A DNA stretch of 64,000 bases. Origin: an uncultured virus (IMG/VR IMGVR_UViG_3300025000_000094). Its lineage: Duplodnaviria > Heunggongvirae > Uroviricota > Caudoviricetes. Position 1 is the stretch's first letter, and every line of letters starts with the position of its first letter. The position numbers were made by a program, and so were the translations under genes. The stretch lies in the IMG/VR virus record IMGVR_UViG_3300025000_000094, one strand, 5' to 3'. This document shows positions 16,239 to 55,595 of this stretch, piece after piece. The notes under the pieces were generated by a model that saw nothing but the letters and a program-made list of their open reading frames with translations, made no database searches and was not told where the DNA came from.

Positions 16239-18248
16239 CTAAACATTGTTTAGCGGGCTTTTAGGAGACGGAGTAACAGTAGACTGTGTTAAAGGCTGTG
16301 CCCCACCAGCCTGTGCCTTATTAAGCATTTGTTGTATAGGGTTCATTTGTTGCCCATCTGTTTGAATCATCAGCTTTTCTTTTTGAGGCTCACCAGAGGC
16401 TACAACCATCCTATTCCACATTTCTACAGCTTTCTGGTCATTAGCCTGTATAAGAGGAAGAAGTTGGGCGTAAGTCTGAAGTAATCCACCGAGTCTCTGC
16501 ATTGAAAATTCCGGGCTCAGGGTTACGCTCCGACGTTTAGCTCTCCATACTATAGAGTTGTCAAAGAACACCTTTTTATCAAGGCTTTTGACGGCGAGTT
16601 TCCCATCTTGCTCTATATTATACTTAACCCTATCAGGGCCAAACTGTGCAAGCAATGCACAATGAAGCTTTGCAAGGTCAGGCATAGAGCGCCTAAACTC
16701 GTCTAGATAGTCGTCTATACGCCCGTTCGCTTGCTGTAACAGGGCGATAGTCTTACCCATAGGGGCTCGAGGGTCTTGGACTGTTTCCTTGCCGGACATA
16801 GCCTGCGTGGGACCAAGGCAAAACTCGAGATACCTAACTATCTGGTTTTCCTCATCAAGGGAATCCCCACTGTTAGATAAATCATGCAACTGGAACTGCT
16901 TTATAGACTTATCGATGTCTTCAACGTAGAAAGCGGCTCCTGGCTTAATTATGTTCTCTGCCCTATAGAAATCAAGGTCTTCTTTGTACTTCTTGTCAAT
17001 AAGAAGTATCGGGCTTGTTGTAAGCATCCTAACGTTATTTCTGTTACGATGAATAGCATCAAGTAATTTAAATTTGTCTTGACCTTCGTTTAGAAGGGAT
17101 ATACCAAGGAACCTGTCTTCCCTAGACGCAAGCCTAAAGTCAACACAGAAATCTATGTTATTCCTTATGTGGTAGTTCTTAAAAGAAAGTACGATGTTGG
17201 GATGTTCAGCACTGAAGGTAACAAGATACTTTTCCGGTATACCATCACCATCCAAATCTTCTTTCCACACGGCGTCAATAATCTTAAAAGGCTTATCGTC
17301 GTCGGTAGGAGATATGACAAGTTTGTCTATGAAGTTCTTAGAAGCTGACCACCGGTCTTTTTCACCAGAAGGTTTCTTGGAGATTAATTCCTCAACCTTG
17401 TCCTTATAAAATTCATTCCTCTTGGCGGCCTCACGAAGCTTGTCCTTAGCCATGAAATATTCCCTGCCATACAGCTTCATATCGCAAATGCGAGTCTGAT
17501 AGGTAGGGTAATATACAAATCTAGCTAAAGGAATAATCTCGTAGGCGGGACCATCAAAAAGTATATTGTCAAACTGGTAGTTGGCTATTAACTCTACTTC
17601 TGGGTCTGTAATAAAAGCGTCGGCTATCTCTTGGTACTCTTCCTCTGTCATGCTGGCAGACATGTATGTAGGATAATCTGCCTGAAAATCAGCGTACTGC
17701 TTGTAAGTCTTACTGTCTGAACACTTCTCGATAGTCCGCTTCCAATAGCCGGATACTATAAGTGTGCCATCTCTAAGGCAAGGTATTGTACCCTGCTTAA
17801 GTATATCTAGTCCATTGCTCTCACTATGGAACGAATAGTTAGTGGCCTCTTCTATGCTAGGAAGTTGTTCTTTAACTTCGTCTTCCTTGCTAACGGCGGT
17901 AAATATATCAGGGTCTTGGTATGCTGTTAGCAAGGACGTGGATTTGAACGTTTTAGCCATACCAGAGGCATAAGATATGGTTACATTAGAAGAACCCTCA
18001 AACGGGAAATTGGTTACTTCTACCACGCCCTCAAGCATCTCATTCATCTCAATAAGATTCCTGCGGTTGTTGGTGGTTTGCTTTTCCCAAACCTTATACT
18101 CTTTATGAATTTTTGTACCAATAAAATCAAGCTTTTCTTTGCTCTTTTTTAAGTTCTTATCCTTCGTTATTTCCTTAACGCGTTCTATTTCTTTTTGAAT
18201 AGACTTGTCAAGACTAGGAGGAGGAGGTACAAATATATTTAACAGCAT
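16239..18248 (-). CDS. Portal protein
   Basis: 669 aa; FPFEGSSN, DLDGDGIPEKYLVT, DRFLGISL and LLQQANGRI motifs; position between terminase and scaffold. Confidence 0.85.
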   Translation of the reverse strand: MLLNIFVPPPPSLDKSIQKEIERVKEITKDKNLKKSKEKLDFIGTKIHKEYKVWEKQTTNNRRNLIEMNEMLEGVVEVTNFPFEGSSNVTISYASGMAKTFKSTSLLTAYQDPDIFTAVSKEDEVKEQLPSIEEATNYSFHSESNGLDILKQGTIPCLRDGTLIVSGYWKRTIEKCSDSKTYKQYADFQADYPTYMSASMTEEEYQEIADAFITDPEVELIANYQFDNILFDGPAYEIIPLARFVYYPTYQTRICDMKLYGREYFMAKDKLREAAKRNEFYKDKVEELISKKPSGEKDRWSASKNFIDKLVISPTDDDKPFKIIDAVWKEDLDGDGIPEKYLVTFSAEHPNIVLSFKNYHIRNNIDFCVDFRLASREDRFLGISLLNEGQDKFKLLDAIHRNRNNVRMLTTSPILLIDKKYKEDLDFYRAENIIKPGAAFYVEDIDKSIKQFQLHDLSNSGDSLDEENQIVRYLEFCLGPTQAMSGKETVQDPRAPMGKTIALLQQANGRIDDYLDEFRRSMPDLAKLHCALLAQFGPDRVKYNIEQDGKLAVKSLDKKVFFDNSIVWRAKRRSVTLSPEFSMQRLGGLLQTYAQLLPLIQANDQKAVEMWNRMVVASGEPQKEKLMIQTDGQQMNPIQQMLNKAQAGGAQPLTQSTVTPSPKSPLNNV

Positions 18249-20167: not shown

Positions 20168-21790
20168 TCACGTAATTTTCCTCACACCGTATTTATCACC
20201 TTGAAAATTAGGGTTAAACACCATGCTACCGTTACCACGCATGTAAATATCTTTAAACGATTTCTCGCTAGGGTCTAGGTCTTGTGTGTACTTAGAAGCA
20301 ATAAACCAAGCTATTGCAAAGCCCATCACCCTGTCACTATAACAACCCTCTTGAGGCTCCATTGACTCGCCATCGTACACGAACGACCGCATTTCATCAA
20401 TTAGTGCACTTGAACGAATCTTGATTCTGAAATCCTTGATACCCTCAGAAAGCTTATGTATCATCAGAGGCTTTGTGCGTTTGGTTGTTTCCCAGCCGTA
20501 CAGTTGGTCTTTAGACTTGTAGGAGTAGTCTGACTTCTCACGCTTCCAAAGGTTAGAATACCCAAGCCCTATAAGTTTCTGCATGGTAACAGCGCCAACA
20601 CCGGGCCAAGACTCAGGTATAAGCAGGGCATTGTTATAATACCTTCCAAGTGTGGCTAAAGTATCACCGAACTCGTCAGGGGCAATATGACCGTGGTATT
20701 CACCTACCTGTTCCATTTCGTTGATGTCTATAATCTCAGCAGTAGAGAAGCAACCGTTTTTAATACCCTCAGCCACATCAGCGCCTATTACGTAGGTATG
20801 GTTCTGTGTAGGCATTTTCCAGATACGAAGGTTGCCATTGTCCACAGGCTTAAATCTAACCTCCTCACCAGCATCGATGAGCAATCCACGCCACCCCGGT
20901 TGCTTACAGAACTTTTCATGTTCCATAAGTGATATCCAGTCAAACACCATAGCAGAGGAAGATATGAAAGCTTCTTCAGCAGTAACAGGGTATTCCTGTG
21001 GGAAGAGTTCAACCTGTGACATATCCCTACGTTTCTTCCTTCGCCAAGCTATCTGCTCCATGTCGCAGTTGAATATGTCAACAAGGTCTTTTTCTTCCTT
21101 GCTTAAATCGTTAAACCCCTGTACGCCTTTGATACGGTAGGTATCGTCCAGCACCCAAGGTATAAATATGGCTTTATAGCGGGAGTTATTTTGTACTGCT
21201 TTCTTCCAAAGCTGGTGAGCGAAGTTAATACCGTTTGCGGTAGTCTCTATCACACCCTCTGCATCGTCCATCAGGGCTTCTTCTACGGCAGTCAGGACTT
21301 CTGGGTCGTCCCAGTGGGCAAACTCCGAAAGATGGTAGTCTGTTATGTCCGAACCCCGACCGAACTTCTTGCTGCCAGCTGTCCCGATGTAGAAAGTCGA
21401 ACCCGTGTCCAGGAACTCTATCATCCCTTCCGATTCCTTTATCTTCACGTTCATCGGCCATAAACAGTTCTTAACCATTGGCATAACACGCTCACGGAAC
21501 ATCTTAACAGTAGCGTCATCGTTCTGAGTTAACATGATGGCGCGCTTGTTCTCTTGGAAGTTACACTTGTGTATAAACCGTGCTATGTTAAAGGTAGACA
21601 TTCCTCCCTTGCGTGACTTTATGATGTAGTCAAACTTGGAGTGGTTCTCCCAGTAATACTTCTGAATTTTGTTTAGTTTAAACCTGACAAGCTTATTGGT
21701 AGACTTGTCTATAATTTGGTAAGCTTTCTCAGCAAAAAAGATTAAATCTTCCTTGCACCTTCGCAGGATTTCTTCTTTGGTGATTTCCAT
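20168..21790 (-). CDS. terL: Terminase large subunit
   Basis: IIKSRKGGMST Walker A, HLSEFAHW Walker B, IETTANG, IGADVAEG nuclease motif, DRVMGFAI. Confidence 0.92.
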   Translation of the reverse strand: MEITKEEILRRCKEDLIFFAEKAYQIIDKSTNKLVRFKLNKIQKYYWENHSKFDYIIKSRKGGMSTFNIARFIHKCNFQENKRAIMLTQNDDATVKMFRERVMPMVKNCLWPMNVKIKESEGMIEFLDTGSTFYIGTAGSKKFGRGSDITDYHLSEFAHWDDPEVLTAVEEALMDDAEGVIETTANGINFAHQLWKKAVQNNSRYKAIFIPWVLDDTYRIKGVQGFNDLSKEEKDLVDIFNCDMEQIAWRRKKRRDMSQVELFPQEYPVTAEEAFISSSAMVFDWISLMEHEKFCKQPGWRGLLIDAGEEVRFKPVDNGNLRIWKMPTQNHTYVIGADVAEGIKNGCFSTAEIIDINEMEQVGEYHGHIAPDEFGDTLATLGRYYNNALLIPESWPGVGAVTMQKLIGLGYSNLWKREKSDYSYKSKDQLYGWETTKRTKPLMIHKLSEGIKDFRIKIRSSALIDEMRSFVYDGESMEPQEGCYSDRVMGFAIAWFIASKYTQDLDPSEKSFKDIYMRGNGSMVFNPNFQGDKYGVRKIT

Positions 21791-23641: not shown

Positions 23642-24189
23642 TGTTGTTTATTGGTTTCAGGAAGGTCATTATATATGTTCATCAGTACGGTTGTAACCTG
23701 ACTTATCAAATCGTAGTTAAACCGAACACCCTTATACGTAAACCCTTCGTAAGAGTGCATCTGGTCTCTAACCCACTCTCTGATGTCTACACATACAGAA
23801 CCATTTGCTTTCGTGAGTGATACACATATGTCAATATTTGGATATTTGTTAATGCTGAAAAGCTTTTTGTTGCCAGTATCAGGAACATCAGAATCAGGTA
23901 CTTCAGGTAGGGATGTTAGGAAGTTAATAACCTCAAGTAAGAACCTATTTGAAATCGTAATACCTTTTTTGGAACTGTAATACTTGTTCTTGTCCACTGA
24001 ATAGGAACTGGCCCTCAAGTCAGTGTACATTCCCATCTTGCCATCAGACTTACGGAACTTAACCAGAGCAATAGCTATATTAGCCGTAGGGCCATTGCGT
24101 ATAGTGCCGTAGATTTTTGGGAAATAATTGGTTATGTACTCTCTATCTCTGTGCTCATGGAAGGCAGAATCAGGCTTATGTGGTATCAT
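23638..24189 (-). CDS. Tandem PC4/p15-like ssDNA-binding protein
   Basis: Two PC4-like units: YTDLR...KKGITI and VDIREW...KGVRF. Confidence 0.65.
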   Translation of the reverse strand: MIPHKPDSAFHEHRDREYITNYFPKIYGTIRNGPTANIAIALVKFRKSDGKMGMYTDLRASSYSVDKNKYYSSKKGITISNRFLLEVINFLTSLPEVPDSDVPDTGNKKLFSINKYPNIDICVSLTKANGSVCVDIREWVRDQMHSYEGFTYKGVRFNYDLISQVTTVLMNIYNDLPETNKQH

Positions 24190-24359
24190 GGTGACTCCTT
24201 AAAATTGACCCCCACATTTGAGCATAAACTATGTAGCTTAGAGGCTTAGGGGGTACTTAAAACGTCTAAAACGTGCTCTCAGGTCACGGTATCCCTAGAG
24301 CGTATCCAGCATTCCGACCATAACCACCAATTAGTGATGGGTAACTGGATTACACTATT

Positions 24360-24388
24360 AATATAGCAGATTCACAAATCATTGTCAA
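24360..24388 (-). promoter_or_regulatory. Sigma70-type promoter
   Basis: TTGACA-17 bp-TATATT with TG extension. Confidence 0.65.
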
Positions 24389-24696
24389 GTCCAAATTTGC
24401 ATTTTTGGGTGGTACTAGGAGGGGCCTAGGTATCATATCCCTGAGAGTCCAGATTCTAATTTCCTCCCCAGACCTGACATACCAAGGTACTTAACTTAGT
24501 GGCTTTTAAAACGCACACGCACTGACGAGATATAGGTACTTCACCTTATCTAATAAAGAATTGGAGGGTGGGTAGTCACATCAGAGCCATTATATATCTT
24601 TACATACGCGTTCGCATAGACTACATATAATAACCTATATATATCTGATACAGTTAATAGCGTCTTAATTATATATATAACTAATCCCGCCCCGTA

Positions 24697-24738
24697 TTGT
24701 TAATAACTTGTTAATAACCCGTTTATATTGTTAATAAC
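24697..24738. repeat. Three copies of TTGTTAATAAC
   Basis: Exact copies at 24697, 24708 and 24728 in an AT-rich non-coding region. Confidence 0.85.
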
Positions 24739-24915
24739 TCTATACTCATATTGCCTAATAATATATATATATAATATAGTCATCTATATGTTAAGTATAT
24801 CATATGGTAAATAGTATACACTCTTATTATATAGTCAACCAATCTAATGGATATCACAATAAGTCTTTAGAACTATTGTGTTATAACTATGTTTATCTAT
24901 TCAATGCCAGACGTA

Positions 24916-24953
24916 AAAGTTAGCCTTGCCTAACAAAGTTAGCCTTGCCTAAC
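24916..24953. repeat. Perfect 19-bp tandem duplication AAAGTTAGCCTTGCCTAAC
   Basis: Read directly. Confidence 0.9.
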
Positions 24954-25157
24954 ATTTTGCCATTTTTCCCATACTTACCGCTAGGTAGGTTTCACCGTTA
25001 CAAACCACAAAAGTAAATCTTGAGCAAAACTTGAGCGAAAGCTTAGGCCCTTGTAAATGCTATAGCCTTCCGCCGTTAAATTGCAACACTATAGCAAAAA
25101 GCAAGTAGCAAACATGTAAAAACCCCTTGTATTTCATCGTTACAAAAAACAAAACGC

Positions 25158-25187
25158 TTTACACAAAAACACGGCATTTGCTACACT
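25158..25187 (+). promoter_or_regulatory. Candidate early promoter
   Basis: TTTACA-18 bp-TACACT with TG extension upstream of the first rightward gene. Confidence 0.5.
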
Positions 25188-25312
25188 TAAAACATGGCAA
25201 AACACAACGGCGGCAACGGCAACACGGCCCACTTTAAACGCCATTATATATAATATATAGCAGATAAAAATAAGACAATTTAGTTAAATCAGATAGTCAT
25301 GGAGAAAATAAC

Positions 25313-25891
25313 ATGGAAAACGTGTCTAAAGTAGCGACAGTCGGAATGAGCGTGAAAAGCGCTGAGGAAATAGCGAAACAGAAGGAAATGGCTAAGACGG
25401 CATATAGCCTACTCGGAATGGAAATGCCCGAAAAGGCCGAAAAGGTGCGGAAAACGTCCACCGGGAGACGGTACAAGCTCGGATACCGTGACCTTGTTGA
25501 CAACGGCAAGAAGATAAACATAAGCGAGTTAATGCCGTATGAAGCGGGGGAACAGGGCATAGACTGCGAGAGCTTGTGTCGGACTGCGCGGGCCTATATA
25601 GCATATAAAATAGGCCATACTCTCAAAGAGTTAAATATTCAGGAAACGGGTCATACTAACTTTTATTTCAGGAACCGTATCACTGAAACAGATAAAAGCA
25701 TAGAAATAGAAGATATGAGCGCTTCTAACGCCTATGAGTTTATCTGGGCCTTTTACAAGGACTGTTTATCCGAAATTACGGATAAATGGGGCATACTTCA
25801 GACTGAAACGGGCGAAAAGGTTTTTTTAGCGGTCAAAAACGGGCACTATCACGTTGTGATGATAGCCGCTCCGGAAGCTAAACAAGCCTAA
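25313..25891 (+). CDS. Hypothetical early protein
   Basis: 192 aa, SD GGAG. Confidence 0.7.
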   Translation: MENVSKVATVGMSVKSAEEIAKQKEMAKTAYSLLGMEMPEKAEKVRKTSTGRRYKLGYRDLVDNGKKINISELMPYEAGEQGIDCESLCRTARAYIAYKIGHTLKELNIQETGHTNFYFRNRITETDKSIEIEDMSASNAYEFIWAFYKDCLSEITDKWGILQTETGEKVFLAVKNGHYHVVMIAAPEAKQA

Positions 25892-26152
25892 GACAAGCAC
25901 TAACGGCGGTCAGAAATGGCCGCCTGTTAGTCATATATATATAAGCATTGATAAACGCTTTTGTATATATGAGTAACAAATAATAAATCAGTATTTCGCA
26001 AGTATCATTCCTTAAAGCGGCGGCCTAGTGGCTTAGTTAGATTGATTATGCCAAATTACATGATTGTTAAGCAAATTTCAGCAGGATTGATTATATCTTT
26101 CATAGTGTCGTATGCTTACATAGTTTGCAACCTTTACTTATAGGATTAAACA

Positions 26153-26341
26153 ATGATTAAATCGATTAAAGTCCTTTACAATACGTACGGATTGACCAAA
26201 GAGGGAGAAGTGATTGTCTCCTTCATTAAGACTGATTTGTTCCAAAAATTGGGCGAATTAGGATGGCTATTCAATTCCATGGAGCTTATGGCTGAAACTC
26301 CTGAGTTTAGCACTTGGGAGATTGAGTTCACTGAGGATTAA
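26153..26341 (+). CDS. Hypothetical protein
   Basis: 62 aa, SD AGGA. Confidence 0.55.
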   Translation: MIKSIKVLYNTYGLTKEGEVIVSFIKTDLFQKLGELGWLFNSMELMAETPEFSTWEIEFTED

Positions 26342-26343
26342 CC

Positions 26344-26622
26344 ATGCAAATAAACATCGGAGACACTATCATCTGCTTTGAAAAGATCGACCCAGAAAAC
26401 TGTTGGACAGGAGTAGTTACTGAATTGCATGGAGAGCGTGGGATATTCAGAAAGGAACAAGGTCGCGATGGACACTGGTTCGGAGGGTTTAGGTCTTCTG
26501 ATATACTAGACATTGTTCACCGTTGGACTAACTGGAATTTCATTAAGCTAGATGATACAGGCAATACTCACAAACTTGAGCGCCTTGCTCCACAGATTAA
26601 CAAAAGAGTAATACGAGATTAA
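26344..26622 (+). CDS. RVIRD-tag family protein 1
   Basis: Starts MQINIGDTI; ends INKRVIRD*. Confidence 0.8.
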   Translation: MQINIGDTIICFEKIDPENCWTGVVTELHGERGIFRKEQGRDGHWFGGFRSSDILDIVHRWTNWNFIKLDDTGNTHKLERLAPQINKRVIRD

Positions 26623-26714
26623 GGAGGCTTATAGATTAAAACATAGTTTACCTAAAATTAGCACTCCGTAGACCTTCAATTAGCAGTTGAAGAATTAAGA
26701 CCGGTTAGGCAGAA

Positions 26715-26969
26715 ATGTCTAGCCGGTTTTATAAACTAAACAAATTTATGCCCATATCAGAATATATAGAAATAACTTGTAGATACTTAAACGAACAGAG
26801 AAGGACTTGCACGTTTCCGAATGGAGTAGGGTTTATAGTGTGTCCTCATCCTAGGTACAGAAGATACGATTGTTCTCGTCCCATTGGAACTAGCGGCTGT
26901 TGGGCATATGATAGCAATGGCAAATAAGTCGTAATTCCAAAAATAATTAAAAGGGTAGTAAGAGACTAA
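26715..26969 (+). pseudogene. RVIRD-tag family protein 2, tag separated by an in-frame TAA
   Basis: ...DSNGK TAA(26925-27) VVIPKIIKRVVRD TAA(26967-69), same frame. Confidence 0.65.
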
Positions 26970-26970
26970 T

Positions 26971-27180
26971 ATGATTAAAGTCGGCTCAATAGTTAAATAC
27001 ATAAACGTAGGCGGTTTATCTAAAGAAACCTACAAGATAGCCACGATTAAAGATGGCTATGTAACTCTTTGCAATGAATATAATAAGATTCATGCACCCA
27101 ACGCTGACCCAAATTATATAGGTAACATTAATTGGTTCAGAGATATTGGCCCTATAGAAAAGAGAGTGGTGAGAGACTAA
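26971..27180 (+). CDS. RVIRD-tag family protein 3
   Basis: Starts MIKVGSIV; ends IEKRVVRD*. Confidence 0.8.
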   Translation: MIKVGSIVKYINVGGLSKETYKIATIKDGYVTLCNEYNKIHAPNADPNYIGNINWFRDIGPIEKRVVRD

Positions 27181-27419
27181 TGAATACATATACCTGCGGA
27201 AACGCTGCTTGCGTAGGAGACTCTGTGCTAGTAATGAACTCTAGCCACCTACAAAGAGTAAGGCCAAGCTTTCTAATCGGACAAACCTTGGATGTCCTTA
27301 AGATTAACAGTAATGGCAATGTCTGTATAGATATCTCTGATGTCTTCTGGAACGCTAAAAGATTTAAGCTAGTATGCAGAAAGAAAGTACGCCCTGTTAT
27401 GAGGGTCGTTAAGGATTAA
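27180..27419 (+). CDS. RVIRD-tag family protein 4
   Basis: TAATG-coupled start MNTYTCG...VGDSV; ends VMRVVKD*. Confidence 0.75.
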   Translation: MNTYTCGNAACVGDSVLVMNSSHLQRVRPSFLIGQTLDVLKINSNGNVCIDISDVFWNAKRFKLVCRKKVRPVMRVVKD

Positions 27420-27420
27420 T

Positions 27421-27681
27421 ATGGAAATTAAAACCGGTGACAAAATAAGATTAGGCTCAGAAGTCGGCGTATACACTTGGCCTCTTCTTGTTATAAAACA
27501 AGACGAATACGGGTATTGCATGACTGAAGACGGGAACAATGTGTCTGGTCATGACGACAACATAGACGCTTTAATGTATGGTCATAAAAACTGGAAAGTT
27601 ATAGAAGTCAAAAGAGGCTCAGAATGGGTATCATTTAAGCCAACTTTGCCAAAGATTAAGAAGAGAGTAATCAGAGACTAA
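27421..27681 (+). CDS. RVIRD-tag family protein 5
   Basis: Starts MEIKTGDKI; ends IKKRVIRD*. Confidence 0.8.
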   Translation: MEIKTGDKIRLGSEVGVYTWPLLVIKQDEYGYCMTEDGNNVSGHDDNIDALMYGHKNWKVIEVKRGSEWVSFKPTLPKIKKRVIRD

Positions 27682-27690
27682 GGAGAAATC

Positions 27691-27930
27691 ATGGAAAGCG
27701 AGTTCAGCAAGGTAATGTATCAGTTGCAGGTAATCAGAGTTTCCGGTACGCCTACATTCTTAAAGCGCGTATCTGAGACTACCCTCACCACCGACACAAT
27801 CGGCGCTAGGCTGAGGACTGAAGCAAGGAAGAGCAACCCTAAAGTTATTAGGGAGTATTTTCCTTCTGACAAAAAGGGAACGATGTTAGTCAGATACAAG
27901 TGGAATACAGACTACGGGAGGGCAAAATGA
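27691..27930 (+). CDS. Hypothetical protein
   Basis: SD AAGGAG; no tag. Confidence 0.6.
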   Translation: MESEFSKVMYQLQVIRVSGTPTFLKRVSETTLTTDTIGARLRTEARKSNPKVIREYFPSDKKGTMLVRYKWNTDYGRAK

Positions 27931-28145
27931 AGGTTGGAGAATTAATCCGTATACTACAAACCCATGACCCGGTCTTAGATGTTGCGGTTCATGACGCTCA
28001 GGAAGAAAGCGTTAGCATGGCTTCCGGAGTTTTCACCGAAACAAAGGGAGAGGAAGATGAACATGTGTACGTCAAAGGCGACCATCCTTTCGACTATTGC
28101 AGAGACAAAGTTACAGATACAATATTAGTAATCACAGGAGGCTAA
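27927..28145 (+). CDS. Hypothetical protein (MKVGELIRILQ type)
   Basis: ATGA overlap with the upstream gene; common phage small-protein start. Confidence 0.6.
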   Translation: MKVGELIRILQTHDPVLDVAVHDAQEESVSMASGVFTETKGEEDEHVYVKGDHPFDYCRDKVTDTILVITGG

Positions 28146-28417
28146 ATGAACAAAGAACATCAGAAGCAGTTTAACTTCACGGTTAATCCGTGGCTTACGA
28201 TAGCCGTCTGGGCCAACCATAAGGCCGAGGCGCTTTCCAAGGCGTACAAGTTCGGCATTGCAGACCTGAAGGTAAAATAACAAGTCGGAGCCGGCCTAAT
28301 CCCATGACATTAGGTTCTGCATGTCAGACTGAAAGCGGCTCCGCACAATTCACATCCGATACGTTTAAAATCTATTATTAGATGGGCTTATGCCTCGTTA
28401 GAAGTCGGATACAATTT

Positions 28418-28708
28418 ATGATGAAAAACTTCCAAGATGGCGATAGAATTTACATAGGCCAAAAGATATATGGCAATGGCTCGTACCGTGGCACTTTAGG
28501 AAGCGGTAGAGAGTTGTTCGCTGATGGAGATGTTTACGTCGTCACAAAATGTTCACAGTCTACATTTGTTAATGACTCCATTTCTGTTAAATGTCTAAAT
28601 TTTCCATACCAAGATTCAGGTTGGTATAGGAAATGGTTTAAGTTTGACCCAGACAATATAGAAATCATGAAACCTGAACCAATGAAAAAGAGAGTAGTGA
28701 GGGATTAA
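28418..28708 (+). CDS. RVIRD-tag family protein 6
   Basis: Starts MMKNFQDGDRI (start refined); ends MKKRVVRD*. Confidence 0.75.
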   Translation: MMKNFQDGDRIYIGQKIYGNGSYRGTLGSGRELFADGDVYVVTKCSQSTFVNDSISVKCLNFPYQDSGWYRKWFKFDPDNIEIMKPEPMKKRVVRD

Positions 28709-28710
28709 TT

Positions 28711-28989
28711 ATGCCAGAAACAAAAATACTTCCTGAAGTCGGAGACCATTTACAGCTTTTCAATAACAAAGGAAAGCTAGAATACGACCTAACCATAAAG
28801 AAAGGTGCATCCGGGTACAAAGGCGATACCGGATGGGCTAATACTGCTTCCTATAAAACCATAGAAGAGTTATGCAACATCTCTTGGGCCGGGGTTAGGA
28901 TTAAGAAAATGGACGGGACACTATACTGGTGGAAAGAAGTTTTTGTTCCTGCTATGCCCAAGATACATAAACGGGTAATCAAAGATTAG
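28711..28989 (+). CDS. RVIRD-tag family protein 7
   Basis: PEVGDHL; ends IHKRVIKD*. Confidence 0.8.
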   Translation: MPETKILPEVGDHLQLFNNKGKLEYDLTIKKGASGYKGDTGWANTASYKTIEELCNISWAGVRIKKMDGTLYWWKEVFVPAMPKIHKRVIKD

Positions 28990-29015
28990 AAGTTAAAAGT
29001 CAAGGAGGATAGTAA

Positions 29016-29441
29016 ATGAAGAAAGTAAAGAAAGCGGTTGTTAGGATAGCGAAGAAGATGAAGAAGCCCGAAGTTAAGTTCTTCGGCTTTAAGGTGGTAG
29101 TCCGTGAGGGTGTGAAGCTGATGTCATGCACCAAGGCCGGACTTTCGGTTCAGTACATAACCGACAAGTTCGTGTCTCCCAGGATGTGGGGTGGCCCTCT
29201 GACTGTGTTCGAGAGCAAGTTCCTCGCGATAGGGTTCTGCGAGAAGCTTCTTTCGACCGTCAAAGAAGAAAACATCCGTGTCTATCGCTGCGAATACGTC
29301 CCGACGATGTGTCAGCATGTCTGGCGTTACCGTGACGGCGGACTGAAGTTCAAGAGCATCAACGAACTCCCCGAGAAGTCCATCCTCGCCAAGAGGGTGA
29401 AGCTTCTGAAGCGTGTAAGCAGTAAGATGTTAGAGACCTGA
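29016..29441 (+). CDS. Hypothetical basic protein
   Basis: SD AAGGAGG; GC-richer codons than its neighbours; no tag. Confidence 0.65.
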   Translation: MKKVKKAVVRIAKKMKKPEVKFFGFKVVVREGVKLMSCTKAGLSVQYITDKFVSPRMWGGPLTVFESKFLAIGFCEKLLSTVKEENIRVYRCEYVPTMCQHVWRYRDGGLKFKSINELPEKSILAKRVKLLKRVSSKMLET

Positions 29442-29564
29442 TAGTGCAGAAAAACAGCAACAGCAGACATCGCCTCGTGCATCGTCTGTGGAACCCGGTT
29501 AAAGTCCGAAGATGCTGTAAGACGGTTTTTGCCCATGTTCCGAGCAAAATGTGGGCTTAAATTT

Positions 29565-29803
29565 ATGAAATATAACACTTGTGATACAGTTAATGAAGTT
29601 TCTGAGACTTACCATTCCGGAGAAACTCCCCAAAGAGGGGATTATGTGGTAGTCATAACAAGAGACTCTTCATATTTTGGGAGATACTTTAAAGTTCTAA
29701 GTTTTGAAGGGTTTACTGCGCATTTCCAGGATAGAAAAACGTGTCTATTTTTGGATAAGCTACAAAAAAGACCAAGATACTACTGAGGGTAGTAAGAGAT
29801 TAA
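29565..29803 (+). pseudogene. RVIRD-tag family protein 8, tag in the -1 frame
   Basis: PQRGDYVVV domain; ORF stops at 29786, but the -1 frame reads KKTKILLRVVRD* to 29803; A6 run at 29764-29769. Confidence 0.6.
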
Positions 29804-29804
29804 C

Positions 29805-30143
29805 ATGACATTCCAAAACATACAACCCGGAGACTTTATTCTATTTGCCGCTTCTAATGGGACTAAGTATTACCATAAGATGTGTAAAGATGAAAGAGGG
29901 TGGTATACGTCAGTACATTCTAAGGGAAAGATAGGGAACGAGTCTTGGCCTTATGGATACATTACAATTCCAAATTGGTCTCCAACCCAAAACATATTCC
30001 CGTATTTTGAAATATGGAAATCAAACTGGGATATGTATTATTGCGGAGTAGAGAATGGGAACTCTTTAACTCATATAGATAACCCTTTACCGATTAGTAA
30101 ATTTTATCGTCCAAAAATGAAAAAAAGGGTTATTAGAGACTAA
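29805..30143 (+). CDS. RVIRD-tag family protein 9
   Basis: IQPGDFI; ends MKKRVIRD*. Confidence 0.8.
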   Translation: MTFQNIQPGDFILFAASNGTKYYHKMCKDERGWYTSVHSKGKIGNESWPYGYITIPNWSPTQNIFPYFEIWKSNWDMYYCGVENGNSLTHIDNPLPISKFYRPKMKKRVIRD

Positions 30144-30149
30144 ATTTAC

Positions 30150-30269
30150 CCGACCTAGTCAAACGAGTCCAAGCACCTAGTAAGTAAGAGCGAACGGTCT
30201 GTACGACAATTAGCCACTCCTGAAGAGTCATGGCAGAGTAGACGAAAAGGGTTAGACTCCTCTGGTCGG
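30150..30269 (+). ncRNA. Candidate structured RNA with a hammerhead-like core
   Basis: Closing helices CCGACC/GGTCGG and GAGTC/GACTC; CTGAAGA-GTC..GAC-GAAA core. Confidence 0.4.
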
Positions 30270-30277
30270 CATTTTAT

Positions 30278-30532
30278 ATGAATACATACATAAACGGTAG
30301 ACAACCAAAGATGGGTGATTGTGTTGTTATAGTCAGACATCCAAACGACCACCCATTATTTAAGATGTGGTTTAAATATGTAGTTATAAGAGCAGAAACT
30401 ACGTACGTAAAACTAAATAATAGATATTCTGTTTATTTAGACTATGTAAGTCATTACGACGATTTGACCGATGCTGAAAAAGAGCTGGTCGAAAAGAACT
30501 CAACAGTAGTTAAAAGAGTAATCAGAGACTAA
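30278..30532 (+). CDS. RVIRD-tag family protein 10
   Basis: MNTYING...KMGDCVV; ends VVKRVIRD*. Confidence 0.8.
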   Translation: MNTYINGRQPKMGDCVVIVRHPNDHPLFKMWFKYVVIRAETTYVKLNNRYSVYLDYVSHYDDLTDAEKELVEKNSTVVKRVIRD

Positions 30533-30541
30533 GGAGATAAC

Positions 30542-31018
30542 ATGGAAACTAAGACTAAAGGCGAAGAAATGGTTGCCAAGAGGAATCTGTGCAACTTCAA
30601 GATAAAGCGGGCTGTCGGTGGCGTGGAGATATTCATTAAGTCGGAACTTTACGAGGACTTCTTTAATAAGATTTCCTCCGGCAAGGCGATAAAGGCTCCG
30701 TCCGGTTCGTTCTTCGGAGAGGGCGAGAAGTATTACGACGTTAAGAAGTGCTCAGTACCTCGCTCAGACTACGAGTATGGCGTGTCTGTTGCGGATTACG
30801 GTCGCAGGGAGTTGATTAACCCCGACAACGCGTCTTATGACTTCTCGTTCATTAAGACTGTCGGCATCAAAGACGGAGTGAAGTTCACTGTAAACGGGAT
30901 GTTCCTGCAGGAAGACATCGAACGTCTTCAGAAAGACTTCACTAAGTTCACCAAAGCGTTCTTCATCAACTACGCTAAAGAGAACTCCATAGAAGTCACC
31001 ATAAGCGCGATAGCCTGA
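30542..31018 (+). CDS. Hypothetical protein upstream of the amidoligase
   Basis: 158 aa, SD AAGGAG. Confidence 0.7.
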   Translation: METKTKGEEMVAKRNLCNFKIKRAVGGVEIFIKSELYEDFFNKISSGKAIKAPSGSFFGEGEKYYDVKKCSVPRSDYEYGVSVADYGRRELINPDNASYDFSFIKTVGIKDGVKFTVNGMFLQEDIERLQKDFTKFTKAFFINYAKENSIEVTISAIA

Positions 31019-31032
31019 TACCGGGAGGTATA

Positions 31033-31719
31033 ATGGAAGAGAAGAAACTATACGACAAAAAGTTCGTCCATATAGACAAGGTGGGACTAGAATTAGAGGG
31101 AGGGTGGGAGAATCCCCCGTCTTTCCAGATAGCAGGTGATTCTAGCGTCCACTGTAACGGGAACGAACTGGGAGAGGCTAGGACAGTCCCGCAGGATAAC
31201 CTTAAAGACGTATTCAACGAGATAAACACAAAATATCCCGATGATATAGACGCTTCCTGCGGTATGCACATCCACATAAGTATAAAGAATGGGATGCTTT
31301 TTCAGGTAGCTGATAAGAAGTTCCGCGATTACTTCATATATCGCATGGGATTACTTGCCAAATACCTTAGACATTCCGGCAATGAGACAGACTATAAGCG
31401 GTTCATCGCTAGGTTCAACAATAGCAATACCTATTGCAAGAGAGAGTTCGCACCTAGGGAACAGCTCAGAGGTGGCAACTCTCGTAGGACTATGCTCAAC
31501 TTCTGTGCTTATAGGAAGTATAAGACTGTGGAGTGCCGTCTTCTGCCTATGTTTGAGAATCTTTCAAACGCTAGGATGGCCGCATATGAGGTAGTGGACA
31601 CGTTCGAGAGTTACCTTGAAAAAGAAAGCGTAAACTACGAGCCTGTTGAGGTGGATATAGAGGTTAACAACTCTTTCTTCGTACCCGACAATGTTTCAAT
31701 GGAGGTAATATGTGCGTAA
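31033..31719 (+). CDS. Putative amidoligase (COOH-NH2 ligase, glutamine-synthetase-like fold, Amidoligase_2 type)
   Basis: GLELE, GDSSV, E-x3-P, SCGMHIHIS, R-x2-LN and TVECR motifs in the expected order. Confidence 0.8.
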   Translation: MEEKKLYDKKFVHIDKVGLELEGGWENPPSFQIAGDSSVHCNGNELGEARTVPQDNLKDVFNEINTKYPDDIDASCGMHIHISIKNGMLFQVADKKFRDYFIYRMGLLAKYLRHSGNETDYKRFIARFNNSNTYCKREFAPREQLRGGNSRRTMLNFCAYRKYKTVECRLLPMFENLSNARMAAYEVVDTFESYLEKESVNYEPVEVDIEVNNSFFVPDNVSMEVICA

Positions 31720-32393
31720 TAGTCGCAATGGAAAGCAAGATACCTAGCCTTGAAACACTCAAGCTATGTGAGAAGAAGAACCCTCACGGTGGAGGCATCT
31801 CGTGGGTTCACAAAGATAAGGTGCATTTCAAGAAAGGCATCCAAGCTGAAGAGATACATTCTATCGCAGTAGAGTTCGGCCCGCCTTGTATCGCGCACTT
31901 CCGCATTTCTACAGTCGGAGGTGTACCCAAAAGTCTAGCGCATCCGTTCCCAATACAGAAAGTAATGACTGATGACCTTGAGGGAGAGGCTAGTTCTGTT
32001 CTCTTCCACAATGGTCACTGGAAAGATTGGGAAGAAGAGTGCTATCGCATGGTTCTTGCCAAAGGAGCCAACTTCACAGATGGGGATTGGTCTGATAGTA
32101 AGGCTATGGCATGGCTGACTGCGTGTTCGCATCATTCCTTCCTTGGATTCCTCAAATCACAGAGAGTTGCAATTCAGACCCCAAAAACCAGAATATACTA
32201 CGGTTCTTGGGAGAAGAAAGACGAAACGTGGTATAGTAACCTTAATTGGGAAGAAAAGGATTACTCCAAGTACCGCCACACCGGCAAAATGGATGATACG
32301 TGGTGGGAGAAACATGGTTGGACATATGAAGAAAGCGCCGACGGTGGTGGTGCGTGGATTCCTCCGAGCGAGAAAGTTGGTGATTCCAAATGA
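31710..32393 (+). CDS. Class II (Ntn) glutamine amidotransferase-like protein
   Basis: N-terminal MC nucleophile, NPHGGG, HFRISTVG, HPF, LFHNG, SDS. Confidence 0.88.
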   Translation: MCVIVAMESKIPSLETLKLCEKKNPHGGGISWVHKDKVHFKKGIQAEEIHSIAVEFGPPCIAHFRISTVGGVPKSLAHPFPIQKVMTDDLEGEASSVLFHNGHWKDWEEECYRMVLAKGANFTDGDWSDSKAMAWLTACSHHSFLGFLKSQRVAIQTPKTRIYYGSWEKKDETWYSNLNWEEKDYSKYRHTGKMDDTWWEKHGWTYEESADGGGAWIPPSEKVGDSK

Positions 32394-32608
32394 AAGGATA
32401 CCAGACTGGAACCGTGGTTGAAGTAAGCGGACAAGACGCTATTCTTTCTCAGGTTAATTACGGAGAGATATGCCTTATTGACATACAATCCGGAAATCGT
32501 TGGCATGACCCCATTCCTGTCGACTGTGCAGACACGATACCTATCTCTAAAATAAAGGAGGCGGCGGATTTTGAACCCATAAAGATAAAAATGGCTAGAT
32601 TTGCTTAA
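32390..32608 (+). CDS. Hypothetical protein
   Basis: ATGA-coupled; LIDIQSGNRW. Confidence 0.55.
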   Translation: MKGYQTGTVVEVSGQDAILSQVNYGEICLIDIQSGNRWHDPIPVDCADTIPISKIKEAADFEPIKIKMARFA

Positions 32609-33218
32609 TATGACAACACTTACAATCAAGGGAATAGAGTATAATATAGACTTTATTGAGGATTCGCACGAATACTATGTAAATGGTACAAAAGTTCCGT
32701 GTGTGTCCAACTATCTATCTGATGTTCTTTCCAACAATGAGCCAATCCCTGAGTACGCTATGCCCGCGGTCAAAAGGGGAGTTGTGTTCCATAAGATAAT
32801 AGCCCTTGATTTAACCTGTGGTGTAGATATTCAAAGTATAGATGAAGGTCTTAAGGGTTATTGGGATTCCTACCAGTTGTTTAAATCAGAACACACTTTA
32901 ATTCCTGATGCAGTTGAGGGTATAATTTACAACCCTGTAGAGAATGTCTGCATGACGTTGGATTACCGTGGCATATTAGATTGCTCAAAGAGCCTTGTGG
33001 ATTGGAAAACAGGCGGTATGTATGCAAAGTATAGGGCACAGCTTGGAGGATACTATCGAGGGGCCGTGGAGTGCTTTGGATTTATACCTGAATTACTTGC
33101 CGCGGTACAAATTTTTAAGAATGGTAAAAAAGCTAAAGTTCATGAGTACGACATAAATGACTGTTCCCATAGATGGGGGTCAATACATGAAGTTTATAAC
33201 ATGAGGAGAGAAAGATGA
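32601..33218 (+). CDS. PD-(D/E)XK exonuclease (Cas4/RecB-like)
   Basis: FIEDSHEYY..VPCVS, RGVVFH, TLD...LVDWKTG, QLGGY. Confidence 0.8.
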   Translation: MLNMTTLTIKGIEYNIDFIEDSHEYYVNGTKVPCVSNYLSDVLSNNEPIPEYAMPAVKRGVVFHKIIALDLTCGVDIQSIDEGLKGYWDSYQLFKSEHTLIPDAVEGIIYNPVENVCMTLDYRGILDCSKSLVDWKTGGMYAKYRAQLGGYYRGAVECFGFIPELLAAVQIFKNGKKAKVHEYDINDCSHRWGSIHEVYNMRRER

Positions 33219-33342
33219 AAATATACGCTTGCGACACTTGTCAGCATAAAGAGAACGCGACTTGTCCTTGGGCCATATATATATGGTTCAGATACAACAG
33301 AGAAGTTTGTTCTGATTATAGGAGATTTAAATAGGAGATAAT

Positions 33343-33792
33343 ATGACAGGCTTACAAAAACTGGTGAAACTTTTAGAGAGAGACCTAGATAAAATAACGG
33401 AGATAAGTTGCATTTCCGAGAGCAATAGAATAAAGGGGTATTTAGACTGTGCCCGCCTCCTCCTCTCCCAAGAGCGTGAGCAGACGGAGGGGTTGGTGGA
33501 GGAGTTTAAGAAGTGTGTGGATAGGCATAAAACACATTGGAATAGCCAATGGGCAATAAATACCATGGAAGAAATCCTCTCTCGCTACACCCCCACGGAG
33601 AGCATAGCGGAGAAGCCGCTGGTGATGACTTCCCAAGTATTCTGGCACGATGATGAGGATGGCGGTGGATGGGCGTTTACTGTTAGAAAAGGCAAGGAGG
33701 TTATCAGGCGTGGATGCGCGGACACAAAGGAAGATGCCGAAGCCAAGGCCCGCCAGTATTTAAATTCGTTACCCGACAAGGAGGTGAGATAG
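33343..33792 (+). CDS. Hypothetical protein
   Basis: 149 aa, SD AGGAG. Confidence 0.6.
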   Translation: MTGLQKLVKLLERDLDKITEISCISESNRIKGYLDCARLLLSQEREQTEGLVEEFKKCVDRHKTHWNSQWAINTMEEILSRYTPTESIAEKPLVMTSQVFWHDDEDGGGWAFTVRKGKEVIRRGCADTKEDAEAKARQYLNSLPDKEVR

Positions 33793-33970
33793 ATATGTTG
33801 TTTGGATTAGAGTTGGACAATTATGCCATAACCATTGCGCTTGTAGCTAGTTGCCTTAATTGGGTATTTCTTTGTTGGGCGATAGCCATAGACCCGAGTG
33901 AACACCATAAGGGGCATTGGACTACGAAAGATATATTTGAATACCGCCCCAAGGACAAAGGAGCCTCTAA

Positions 33971-34471
33971 ATGATAATCACGGAGAAAATGTTGAGCAAA
34001 GAAGAAAACCCATGTGATGATGGTCTGGCGTGGTTCAAGAAAGAACCCAACCACGATATGACGGCCTTGGTTAAGTCTGCCATAAAACAGGGTGGAGAAC
34101 CCATGAATTATGTCGGGTGGGGCCTGTGTGCTGTAATGACCAAAGAACAGCGCATAGAGTGGGGCATATTCTCGGCTTATCAGGTAGCGCACCTATGGAA
34201 AGACAAGTCCCCCAAAGAATACGCCATATGGGACGAGTGGGCGAGTGGTAGGGATAGGTCAAACGCCGCTAGGGCCGCCGCTAGGGACGCCGCTAGGGAC
34301 GCCGCTAGGGACGCCGCTTGGAACGCCGCTAGTGACGCCGCTAGGGACGCCGCTAGTGACGCCGCTTGGAACGCCGCTAGGGCCGCCGCTTGGAACGCCG
34401 CCCACAACAAAACGTTAGCCAAAATACTCCGTTACGGGGTTAAGATATTGAACGAGGGAGGGAGGAGATAA
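33971..34471 (+). CDS. Hypothetical protein with AA(R/W/S)(D/N/A) tetrapeptide repeats
   Basis: [11 protein letters not shown]-terminus and about 12 Ala-rich repeats, a common phage family. Confidence 0.7.
34262..34402 (+). repeat. Coding 12-bp tandem repeat (consensus GACGCCGCTAGG), about 12 units
   Basis: Read directly. Confidence 0.9.
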
Positions 34472-39683: not shown

Positions 39684-39929
39684 ATGCCTAAATATATGTT
39701 CTCTGGTAAATATATAACCAAACAGTTTAGGAAAGGTAGTAAATGCCCATATTGGCCTATAAATAGATGTGACTGCGTTATTGATGAAATAAGTAGTTCA
39801 GAGCATTTCCAAATAGCAGATAAGTTTTGTAGTAGATTTGTTGAATACTGCAAATCTCCATTATCTTTTACTGATACGTATCCAGAGATTGTTGTTGAAG
39901 TATTCCATGGTAGAGTAATAAAGGACTAA
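39684..39929 (+). CDS. RVIRD-tag family protein 11 (outlier)
   Basis: Cys-rich body; ends FHGRVIKD*. Confidence 0.65.
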   Translation: MPKYMFSGKYITKQFRKGSKCPYWPINRCDCVIDEISSSEHFQIADKFCSRFVEYCKSPLSFTDTYPEIVVEVFHGRVIKD

Positions 39930-39930: not shown

Positions 39931-40721
39931 ATGCTATATAAAAAACAAGAGGAAACACCTCAAACGGTTTCGTGCTTTACGGGGTATAGCGTTAAAGAAC
40001 GAATTTTGGTATATAAACCAAACGAAACTCCTACTGAACTTGGGTTTAAAACATTCCATTGTATACGAAGATTTACTGTTGACTATCTAGCGGGTAAATG
40101 CAACCTTTGCACCAAAGACATAAACAAAGAATCCTTTTACATACACAAGCAGTATTATAGCCAAGAAATGTTGCTTTTGATGATAAGAGTGTATGAGAAA
40201 GGAGTTAAAGAAAGGTTTTCTGGAGCAATTTGGCCCGATAACCAGTATTTTAATGATATAATAAAGTGTATGGCTAAGCCTATGCCTATGAATATGGGGC
40301 CTAAGCCAATTAAAAAAGATTACTTCCAGGAAATGGAAGAGAAAAAAGATAGAATTGAGGAGGTACCTTTCTAATGAATCCATGGGAAGAAGGTGAAGAA
40401 GTTATACCGCCACAGGTAAAATTGAGTATTAATAGATGGAAACCAAAAGACGAAGAAGATGCTTTTGAAAGACTAGCTAGGTGGGCACAGTATGCAACAT
40501 CTTCTAATGGTAGTTCACGTCCTAGTGCTACAGCTAATGCTTTGTATGAACAAGCCTCATCTCGTCTAGCACAATACACACAACGAGAAGCTTCTATAGC
40601 ACAAACCGCGGCACAACAGGAAACTGCTATGCAAGCAATACGTGGAATGCAGGAACGACAGGCTCAAGGAGTATGGCGCAATATTTCGTCAATAATGGGT
40701 GAAGGAGATATACCTTTTTAA
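39931..40721 (+). other. Two hypothetical genes (39931-40374, 40374-40721), both ending in acidic-x-P-F
   Basis: C-termini IEEVPF and EGDIPF. Confidence 0.6.
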
Positions 40722-42673: not shown

Positions 42674-42745
42674 GCCCTCAAAGCTTTGGTAGTGAAGCAC
42701 AGGTTTTGTAAACCTGAAAATCTGGTGCAATTCCAGATGAGGGCT
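42674..42745 (+). tRNA. tRNA-Thr(TGT)
   Basis: Acceptor GCCCTCA/TGAGGGC; anticodon arm CAGGT-TTTGTAA-ACCTG; T arm TCTGG-TGCAATT-CCAGA (atypical T loop); no encoded CCA. Confidence 0.8.
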
Positions 42746-42850
42746 GATATAAGGACTCCGTTACCATCGAACAATCCGAACTTAATAGTGATTGTATGGT
42801 CGCAATACGGGTGGACTGCCTCCAAAAACGTAAAGTGAGGCCCAGTTTCT

Positions 42851-42924
42851 GCCGGTTTAGTGTAGAGGAAACACGTCTCTCTTTGAAAGAGAAATCATAG
42901 GTTCAATTCCTATAACCGGTGCCA
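42851..42924 (+). tRNA. tRNA-Gln(TTG)
   Basis: Acceptor GCCGGTT/AACCGGT; anticodon arm TCTCT-CTTTGAA-AGAGA; T arm ATAGG-TTCAATT-CCTAT; encoded CCA. Confidence 0.85.
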
Positions 42925-42928: not shown

Positions 42929-43067
42929 AAACTCCAGAATCGTCAGGGATTAGCCTGAACTTATTCATGCGCAGACCTTCAATATTTAATTATTGGGGAC
43001 AAGCCGTCGGCGTTAAGAACCCAAGCCGCGTAATTGGGAATACGGTTAAAATCCGTGTCTGGAGTTT
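42929..43067 (+). ncRNA. Candidate tRNA-like structured RNA
   Basis: 10-bp closing stem AAACTCCAGA/TCTGGAGTTT with an adjacent T-arm-like TACGG-TTAAAAT-CCGTG and three internal hairpins. Confidence 0.4.
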
Positions 43068-45559: not shown

Positions 45560-46110
45560 TAACTTCTCCTTTTCATTACATCAATCTCAAACCTGCTTGC
45601 TCCGTTCCCTAGCTTATTCCCACGAAGCCACCCAATCTGGTTCCACCTACCGAATAGCCAAAACTCGCAGTAGGGCCGGCGGGCGTGCTCGTAGGTGCGC
45701 GTGACGTAGAAGTTGCGCTTGCCGTCGTGGGGTTCTTCGGACAGGAAGCGGCCTAACTTCATGGCGGCGTAGTTGTTCCAGTTCACGCAGGAATTGCGGA
45801 TGGCGCTCCACCAGTATGCTTTGAGGAAGTCGGAGCCGGAGGCCCACACGAAGGCCGGGAAGTATTTCTCCCTGTTGCCGTAGTCCACGCCGAACTCTAT
45901 GAACACGCTGTCGTCGAGGAGCAGCCACAAGGGCCACCAGTAGCCGTGCAGGGGCAGGCGCAAGTAGTCGCGCCAGTCTATCGGCGTGAGCGTCTGGTAG
46001 CGCACCTTGTGGCGCAGGGCGTAGGCCACGGGATAAAGCACCGCCGACAGCACGCGCTTGACGGGTTCCAGGAGGAGGTAGGCGAGGAGGTGAAGCATAT
46101 CAGTATTCAA
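45559..46110 (-). CDS. Hypothetical Trp-rich protein spanning the GC breakpoint
   Basis: 183 aa, YWWSAIRN motif; codon style switches near 45,660. Confidence 0.65.
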   Translation of the reverse strand: MNTDMLHLLAYLLLEPVKRVLSAVLYPVAYALRHKVRYQTLTPIDWRDYLRLPLHGYWWPLWLLLDDSVFIEFGVDYGNREKYFPAFVWASGSDFLKAYWWSAIRNSCVNWNNYAAMKLGRFLSEEPHDGKRNFYVTRTYEHARRPYCEFWLFGRWNQIGWLRGNKLGNGASRFEIDVMKRRS

Positions 46111-48286: not shown

Positions 48287-48302
48287 GGTATTTATCCCTC
48301 CG

Positions 48303-50999: not shown

Positions 51000-51000
51000 T

Positions 51001-53648: not shown

Positions 53649-53655
53649 GATAACC

Positions 53656-55594: not shown

Positions 55595-55595
55595 G

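Follow-up and report, generated by a model that had tools for sequence, protein, structure and literature searches.

A shared C-terminal tag on small early proteins of an uncultured groundwater phage and its candidate readers

Shared terminal peptides send many proteins to one machine, as do protease adaptor tails, compartment cargo peptides and ligase carrier tails. The window analyzed here is a 64,000-nt stretch of DNA from an uncultured virus of the Caudoviricetes (IMG/VR record IMGVR_UViG_3300025000_000094), and about 45.7 kb of it belongs to a groundwater phage with 40% GC content. An array of small genes at 26344–30532 encodes dissimilar proteins that end in the same peptide, [K]-R-V-[IV]-[RK]-D-COOH. 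The reading that fits this tag best is a short linear docking handle, carried on a free tail and with one common partner per phage.

The closest described gene set is the phage amidoligase neighborhood. Iyer, Abhiman, Burroughs and Aravind reportedly described, in 2009, phage neighborhoods that combine Amidoligase_2, class-II glutamine amidotransferase (GATase)-like and AIG2/GGACT genes. The trio of a predicted ligase, a GATase-like protein (here termed the Cys1 protein) and GGACT is, judged by sequence, this neighborhood. UFV-P2 and LUZ24-type phages are listed with the same enzyme gene set (PMC3890496). Points of likeness are the place of the trio in the early region, the glutamine-synthetase-like fold of the ligase and a neighbor that starts Met-Cys; GGACT is found in the related phage contig L054. 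The window differs in having a minimal ligase of 228 aa that falls under the Pfam cut-off, and in its tail-tagged mini-proteins. A literature search turned up neither a substrate or partner described for this module nor any account of mini-proteins with such tails.

Two carrier systems also invite comparison. Pup ends in G-G-Q/E. The Pup/PafA/Dop system resembles the locus in having a small protein with a disordered C-terminal end and an acidic last residue, near a ligase of the glutamine-synthetase/carboxylate-amine superfamily. It differs in that the window tail ends R-D, eleven folded carriers stand against one disordered carrier, and the window ligase is only half as large and lacks a Dop paralog. 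In LysW-type carriers, the C-terminal acidic residue is the attachment point for the ATP-dependent amide ligase LysX, and downstream enzymes recognize the carrier. LysX is an ATP-grasp enzyme, and LysW is a single zinc-ribbon protein encoded in a biosynthetic operon. The window likewise combines small proteins having a C-terminal acidic residue with a putative amide ligase. Its ligase has a glutamine-synthetase fold and not an ATP-grasp fold, and no biosynthetic enzymes are evident around the array. No sequence relationship of the tagged proteins to Pup or LysW was found in Pfam or in a profile search of 1.84 billion representative proteins.

Tagged genes and their conserved tail

The tag was searched as R[VI][VI][RK]D in a six-frame translation of the window. 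Thirteen matches were found, 12 on the plus strand and 1 on the minus strand. A stop codon directly follows all 12 plus-strand matches and does not follow the minus-strand match. Other phage DNA (199 loci, 2.15 Mb, six frames) yielded 12 matches, none directly before a stop, and the exact tag in a set of 52 loci gave 3 internal matches and none before a stop. Counts of exact last-4 and reduced-alphabet last-5 tails over the loci returned nothing outside the window and L054. The tag is non-random. Ten tags lie within the array at the places and with the peptides given in an earlier note on this DNA. An eleventh, absent from that list, ends gene 11, an 81-aa open reading frame (ORF) at 39684–39929 (HGRVIKD). 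Two tRNA genes, tRNA-Thr(TGT) and tRNA-Gln(TTG), are present at the end of the early arm (42674–42924). Just behind the second, 12 nt past tRNA-Gln, lies the twelfth plus-strand match (42936–42950); no ORF of at least 30 aa is present there, and this match is taken as non-coding chance. Asp is the final residue in 11/11 window tags, as had been stated for the array, and in 3/3 complete L054 tails. The Pro/Lys-rich linker proposed to precede the tag is also seen, with a Pro within the 8 residues before the tag Arg in 8/10 tags.

All tagged genes are on the plus strand. Gene 1 (26344–26622, 92 aa) ends in NKRVIRD, gene 3 (26971–27180, 69 aa) in EKRVVRD, gene 5 (27421–27681, 86 aa) in KKRVIRD, gene 7 (28711–28989, 92 aa) in HKRVIKD, gene 9 (29805–30143, 112 aa) in KKRVIRD and gene 10 (30278–30532, 84 aa) in VKRVIRD. 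Gene 4 (27180–27419) encodes 79 aa from the ATG at 27180, or 95 aa from the TTG at 27132, and ends in VMRVVKD. Gene 6 (28382–28708) encodes 108 aa, or 95 aa from the ATG at 28421, and ends in KKRVVRD. Gene 11 has a different body and is located among replication genes. Untagged plus-strand genes inside the array include p141, which encodes a 141-aa protein (29016–29441), and three GC-richer small genes (27691–27930, 27927–28145 and 28146–28280) that were negative in the family search. The difference in composition noted earlier holds: untagged genes have 0.44–0.51 GC and strong Shine-Dalgarno sequences, versus 0.33–0.42 GC for tagged genes.

Genes 2 and 8 had been reported to have tags uncoupled from their bodies. 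Gene 2 (26715–26969) is a 70-codon ORF closed by an in-frame TAA (26925–26927), with 13 further codons leading to IKRVVRD and a stop. The TAA at 26925 cuts off the tag as described and is also found in contigs of runs X1, X6 and X8. The 70-aa body is Cys/Arg-rich and unlike the other bodies. This copy of the gene may be truncated, read through or decaying. In gene 8 (29529–29803), the absence of 25 nt at 29764 from the window puts the body and the tag (LLRVVRD) out of frame with each other. Those 25 nt are present in the sister contig L001 (99.5% identity across 12.6 kb), whose gene 8 is intact and ends in LLRVVRD (product P0039). Contigs of runs X1 and X6 also have them, and in X10 they appear as a loose end. 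The uncoupling of tag 8 is therefore right for the window but not for L001 or any run covering the site, where the gene is intact. A second window-private deletion, of 27 nt at 29417, is filled in runs X1, X6 and X8 and alters the end of p141. In L001 (5932–6339) and L054 (274–657), p141 ends in AKRVKLLKRVI, and the deletion replaces that end in the window. This end resembles the first four residues of the window tag, even in L054, whose own tails read FKGCTIRD.

Codon positions were counted over six tag codons in the ten array copies. Minor alleles number 8/4/27 at codon positions 1/2/3 (chi-square p=9e-6), which bears out the synonymous variation reported previously. Arg is encoded by AGA, AGG, CGG and CGA, so both CGN and AGR codons are used, and the Val and Ile/Val codons each take all four bases at their third position. 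Within the five core codons, changes at positions 1 and 2 are only synonymous or conservative (I/V, R/K), and no radical replacement occurs in 50 codons. The conserved DNA spans about 18 nt, with a mean pairwise identity of 0.71 in the tag versus 0.39 and 0.26 upstream and 0.28 downstream. Since the changes sit at wobble positions, selection acts on the peptide; the earlier note had said the same, and both the wobble-concentrated variation and the short conserved block agree with it.

A competing explanation places the conservation mainly at the level of DNA or RNA, as an embedded ribosome-binding site (RBS) or translational-coupling element, or as a recombination joint that includes the stop codon. 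At six junctions (before 26971, 27180, 27421, 28711, 29805 and 39931), the next start is at most 2 nt from the tag stop, and the [RK]-D codons (AGAGAY, AGGGAT or AAGGAY) are the sole Shine-Dalgarno-like run. These codons thus double as Shine-Dalgarno sequences, as in C-terminal motifs with an embedded RBS. A pure effect of this kind exists in the random control locus L124 (1448–5952), where about nine overlapping genes in succession have the endings ...EVEE, ...VEE or ...EE. Those endings are most simply read as a Shine-Dalgarno sequence embedded in the upstream gene, and they call for caution in tail-tag scans. Four small genes in L048 (2402–5095), upstream of a large LUZ24-type amidoligase/GATase/ATP-grasp module, end in P-[RK]-N-[YT]-[RK]-[EM]-L-[PVE]. 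In 4/4 cases, their tail codons (R-E-L-P-stop) overlap both an AGGGAG-like run and the next start (ATGA or GTGTGA), and the peptide and RBS explanations are inseparable for these ambiguous tails.

A recombination joint has its own indications. The junctions behind tags 5 and 10 (27664–27700 and 30515–30551) are nearly identical over about 30 nt that comprise the tag, TAA, GGAGA and ATGGAAA. Each precedes a GC-richer untagged gene, and they may be a recombination joint. Both window-private deletions fall at C-terminal ends within the array.

The RBS accounts for the [RK]-D codons at 6/11 tags but leaves the R-V-[IV] part and the wobble pattern unexplained, so this proposed alternative to peptide selection stands only in part. 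Five tags (1, 5, 7, 9 and 10) retain the motif though a separate Shine-Dalgarno sequence serves the next gene or that gene is 134 nt away. The window thus differs from L124 in wobble variation, in a conserved R-V-[IV] and in tags that have no coupled gene. Conservation independent of codon position, as in a DNA element, was found neither in the window (8/4/27) nor in L054 (1/0/6). Arg is kept through two codon families, the core shows no radical replacement, the conserved block is short and only 71% identical, and identical tail peptides in L054 stand in differing downstream contexts. A DNA-level cause is largely refuted as the main one, and we consider it very improbable.

The earlier statement that the bodies are unalignable nearly holds: without their tags, the highest-scoring pair in the window reaches 25.8 bits and all others at most 20.4. 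The proteins share a Gly (mostly Gly-Asp) close to the N-terminus. An AlphaFold model of gene 5, built on an 11-sequence alignment, has a mean predicted local distance difference test (pLDDT) score of 85, with five strands and one short helix in residues 8–72. The tail (residues 73–86) has no secondary structure, and pLDDT, about 90 in the barrel, drops to 72 in the penultimate block and 58 in the final one. On this model, the tagged protein is predicted to be a small beta-barrel with a free disordered tail. Its only VIA-align matches have Z ≤4.0 and are assorted small barrels (Rpp29, FeoA, Tudor and SH3b domains).

Foldseek of the tagged protein against the PDB gave no match at E ≤1e-3, and nothing significant was found for the tagged proteins in Pfam and PHROGs. 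A profile of 8 tagged proteins retrieved 6 proteins (from 139 candidates) in a collection of 5.8 billion proteins and 7 among the 1.84 billion representatives, all the phage's own. An 11-sequence profile at E up to 10 retrieved 6 proteins from 159 candidates, of which only the L054-type P0038 and the intact gene 8 product P0039 were new. Beyond L054, the profile searches of these two collections gave the mini-protein family no relatives. The cultured-phage collection has no DNA match to window 26300–32400, a search of genome contigs gave one weak match and no close relative, and nothing in G001, the nearest virus record, matches the mini-protein family. The tag carriers differ, and include small barrels, a beta-solenoid (in L054) and the different 81-aa protein of gene 11.

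One tail per phage

L054 is a 3.9-kb metagenome contig syntenic with the window block. Protein identities between the two are 74.6% for p141, 41.6% for p158, 50.5% for the ligase and 60.5% for the Cys1 protein, and L054 also carries a GGACT gene (PF06094, E 2.1e-16). In both phages, the tagged genes and the enzyme genes are interleaved. Three of the small genes in L054 are complete and all end in FKGCTIRD; the fourth is cut by the contig end. Tag DNA in L054 varies synonymously (1/0/6 by codon position), with Arg encoded by AGA, CGG and AGG and all three stop codons in use. L054 1–240 encodes a beta-solenoid (YdcK repeat, E 2e-9) that is cut at its 5′ end and has the same FKGCTIRD tail. The tail therefore sits on unrelated folds.

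With tags removed, gene 5 and L054 1372–1626 are reciprocal best matches (42.7 bits, E 4e-11), as are gene 10 and L054 742–1005 (36.6 bits). The paralogs therefore predate the split of the two phages. The tail is uniform within each phage but differs between them, and both tails finish I-R-D. Two database variants are consistent with this; they differ from these copies at 5/88 and 3/112 residues, none of them among the last 12. Tails that are uniform within a phage and changed in step between phages point to one common reader, and this in-step change, seen in sequence, is the strongest sign that all copies share it.

These results bear on the modular effector system proposed in the earlier note, with variable, putatively target-binding bodies and a constant C-terminal handle. 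Peptide selection, the free tail of the model, the varied bodies and the uniform tag of each phage support it in part. Of the readers it offered (ligation, docking on a protease or hub, capsid loading), the first two have concrete candidates.

Candidate readers

The enzyme block follows the array on the plus strand. p158, a 158-aa protein (30542–31018), precedes the ligase in both phages. The predicted amidoligase (31033–31719) matches phrog_2443 "amidoligase enzyme" at E 3.2e-4, and the L054 copy scores 19.6 bits to Amidoligase_2. Its model has a pLDDT of 86.9. The best VIA-align match is chain 9nlr_S (Z 10.8, root-mean-square deviation 3.5, 166 residues), and the YbdK-like GCS2 chain 1tt4 matches at Z 9.0. 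Among 655 chains, 148 match at Z ≥8, and the 50 listed are all glutamine synthetases except 1tt4. The best Foldseek match is YbdK (E 0.024). The model indicates that the ligase has a glutamine-synthetase/GCS2 catalytic fold. Residues E20, E22, E48, H79, H81, E167 and R169 are invariant among 17 sequences.

Relatives of the ligase at E ≤1e-3 number 29 of 73 candidates, six of them at 51–66% identity (P0010–P0014 among these). No match was found by the ligase profile in PDB sequences or by tblastn in the cultured-phage collection, and IMG/VR scans with ligase alignments found only ligases of at most 35% identity besides the phage's own contig. The Cys1 protein (31710–32393, 227 aa) is putatively class-II GATase-like (Ntn type), and its Met-Cys start and an H-N-G motif are kept in both phages. 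In Pfam, the window copy had no match and the L054 copy only a weak one, to GATase_6 (E 0.09). The Atlas clusters closest to the Cys1 protein are viral, and 13–19% of their members carry GATase_4/6.

The likeliest common partner, in our view, is the phage's own block of amide-bond enzymes, that is, the ligase, the Cys1 protein and, in L054, GGACT. We put the probability of this reading at roughly 35%, and we infer both the tail-enzyme contact and all of the chemistry. The handle would stand on a flexible, often Pro/Lys-rich linker behind small dissimilar early proteins. The ligase, a putative ATP-dependent carboxylate-amine ligase of glutamine-synthetase fold, would bind the tail, activate a carboxylate of the terminal Asp and join it to an amine, for which ammonia, a small molecule and a lysine are candidates. 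The Cys1 protein and GGACT would supply the amine or undo the bond. PafA, of the glutamine-synthetase superfamily, takes the C-terminal Glu of disordered Pup at the glutamate site of glutamine synthetase (PMC3511204). By this analogy, an Asp-ended tail beside such a ligase could be a substrate or a carrier handle. A full tail-ligation system, in which one ligase couples about eleven mini-proteins to host lysines or a small amine and Cys1/GGACT supply the amine or reverse the coupling, is a more specific proposal and an unlikely one.

Several observations weigh against the enzyme block as reader. The window ligase is under the cut-off of Pfam Amidoligase_2 (PF12224), at 19.0 versus 22 bits (E 1.4e-3), and a scan of 41 window ORFs found no GGACT gene. 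A cell-wall role has been suggested for the phage amidoligase enzymes, as relayed by a citing paper, and amidoligases and amidotransferases also accompany thymidine-hypermodification genes (PMC8989533). The window phage and L054 are relatives, so their shared gene order counts as one observation. The cultured amidoligase phages Porphyromonas phage019b and Bacillus 035JT001 have no shared tails, and most amidoligase modules therefore work without such tags.

A wider comparison of loci also fails to favor the enzyme block. Genes were called greedily per locus, in place of a stop-to-stop tail test that was noisy in GC-rich loci, and a cluster was defined as at least 3 genes sharing 5/7 residues within the last 12. 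Before counting, L001, L002 and L053 were dropped as belonging to the same phage, and L015 and L065 as a second copy of one contig. Tail clusters were found in 3/79 amidoligase loci (1.13 Mb, 2,237 genes) and 2/80 random viral loci (0.93 Mb, 1,574 genes), which is no enrichment in a test of little power. The three amidoligase loci are L054, L048 and a weak case, L080; an RBS within the tails, together with their overlap with the next start, can explain the L048 cluster. Such tails are real features, and a control at internal positions found 0 clusters in the amidoligase set and in the window.

The tail could instead dock the mini-proteins on a host hub, chiefly the N-terminal zinc-binding domain of ClpX, in the manner of the SspB XB peptide. 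The barrels would then be phage adaptors that deliver host proteins to ClpXP, or blockers of the site. The C-terminal XB peptide of Escherichia coli SspB is RGGRPALRVVK-COOH and binds the ClpX N-domain (PMC8808172, PMC3983244). Its RVVK core matches the tag core RV[VI][RK] in 11/11 tags, and tags 8 and 4 read LRVVRD and MRVVKD, with Leu or Met before the core (2/11). SspB has the same plan of folded binding domain, flexible linker and extreme C-terminal peptide. XB fused to a binder suffices to bring an untagged target to ClpXP (PMC12373786).

The match to XB is incomplete. The terminal Asp is extra in 14/14 tags of the two phages and absent from XB, most tags have Lys where XB has Leu, and all that the L054 tail shares is [TV]-I-R. 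PMC12373786 describes the contact of SspB with ClpX as highly conserved, which is a poor fit to a tag that changes between related phages. No SspB homology was found: the tagged proteins have no Pfam family, SspB is not among the fold matches listed, and an SspB family search on virus record G001 found nothing and returned no control loci. The XB compared is the E. coli sequence, and a likeness of four residues that emerges from comparison with many known motifs is weak evidence. Among 456 R[VI][VI][RK] matches in the 199 loci, 7 XB-like ends lie at or one residue before the stop (frames of at least 40 codons), and none recurs within a locus. ClpX is the main alternative reader, though a rather doubtful one.

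The in-step change of the tails needs one reader but no particular one. Other possible partners are p141, p158, a further host protein, and the mini-proteins themselves, which could form mixed oligomers by exchanging strands. Of the proteins in the block, p141 is the most conserved, and it lies within the array in both phages; p158 holds its place before the ligase in both. Both candidates are suggested by position alone, and no family or fold is assigned to either. Searches of Pfam, NCBIfam, PADLOC, the PDB and the Atlas gave no usable result for p141 and p158, and an IMG/VR scan with p141 found only the phage's own contig. A partner of this kind is unlikely.

Capsid loading for co-injection of the mini-proteins had also been raised in the earlier note. 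HK97-fold encapsulins load unrelated cargo through a shared C-terminal peptide, and the tag is like such cargo peptides. The tagged genes, though, are in the early/replication arm, on the strand opposite the structural module, and no link to head genes is seen. This role is highly improbable.

Genome context and implications

The minus strand of the window phage carries structural genes, including the terminase (20168–21790), portal (16239–18248) and head (12479–13363) genes. The early/replication arm is on the plus strand from about 25.3 kb to 43 kb and has the array at its start. This arm encodes Erf, a phosphoesterase, a replication initiator, a radical-SAM protein and an HNH protein. Scans for promoters and terminators in window 24000–34000 gave results at or below chance level. 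Adjacent proteins at 39931–40374 (...EEVPF) and 40374–40721 (...GEGDIPF) have acidic-type C-terminal ends. The acidic I-P-F tip of bacterial SSB recruits partner proteins, and by likeness to it these ends could represent another type of C-terminal docking tail carried by this phage.

The window consists of two phages joined. DNA from about 45.7 kb on has 60% GC content and a second, unrelated structural module (45650–64000), with terminase (61788–63407), portal (60582–61787), protease (59818–60585), head protein (58619–59815), tape measure and tail fiber genes. A 57.5-kb contig that contains L053, from the same phage as the window, stops at about window position 45764 by arithmetic from contig ranges.

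The array is a clean case of a shared terminal peptide, with one peptide on at least eleven early proteins, one apparent reader and two concrete candidates for it. If the reader is the neighboring enzymes, the mini-proteins would be the first substrates for a widespread phage amidoligase module that has lacked a known function since 2009. If the tails are in fact ligated, the system would parallel pupylation, with many modifiers in place of one. Should ClpX be the reader, the mini-proteins would be natural counterparts of engineered bacterial degraders.

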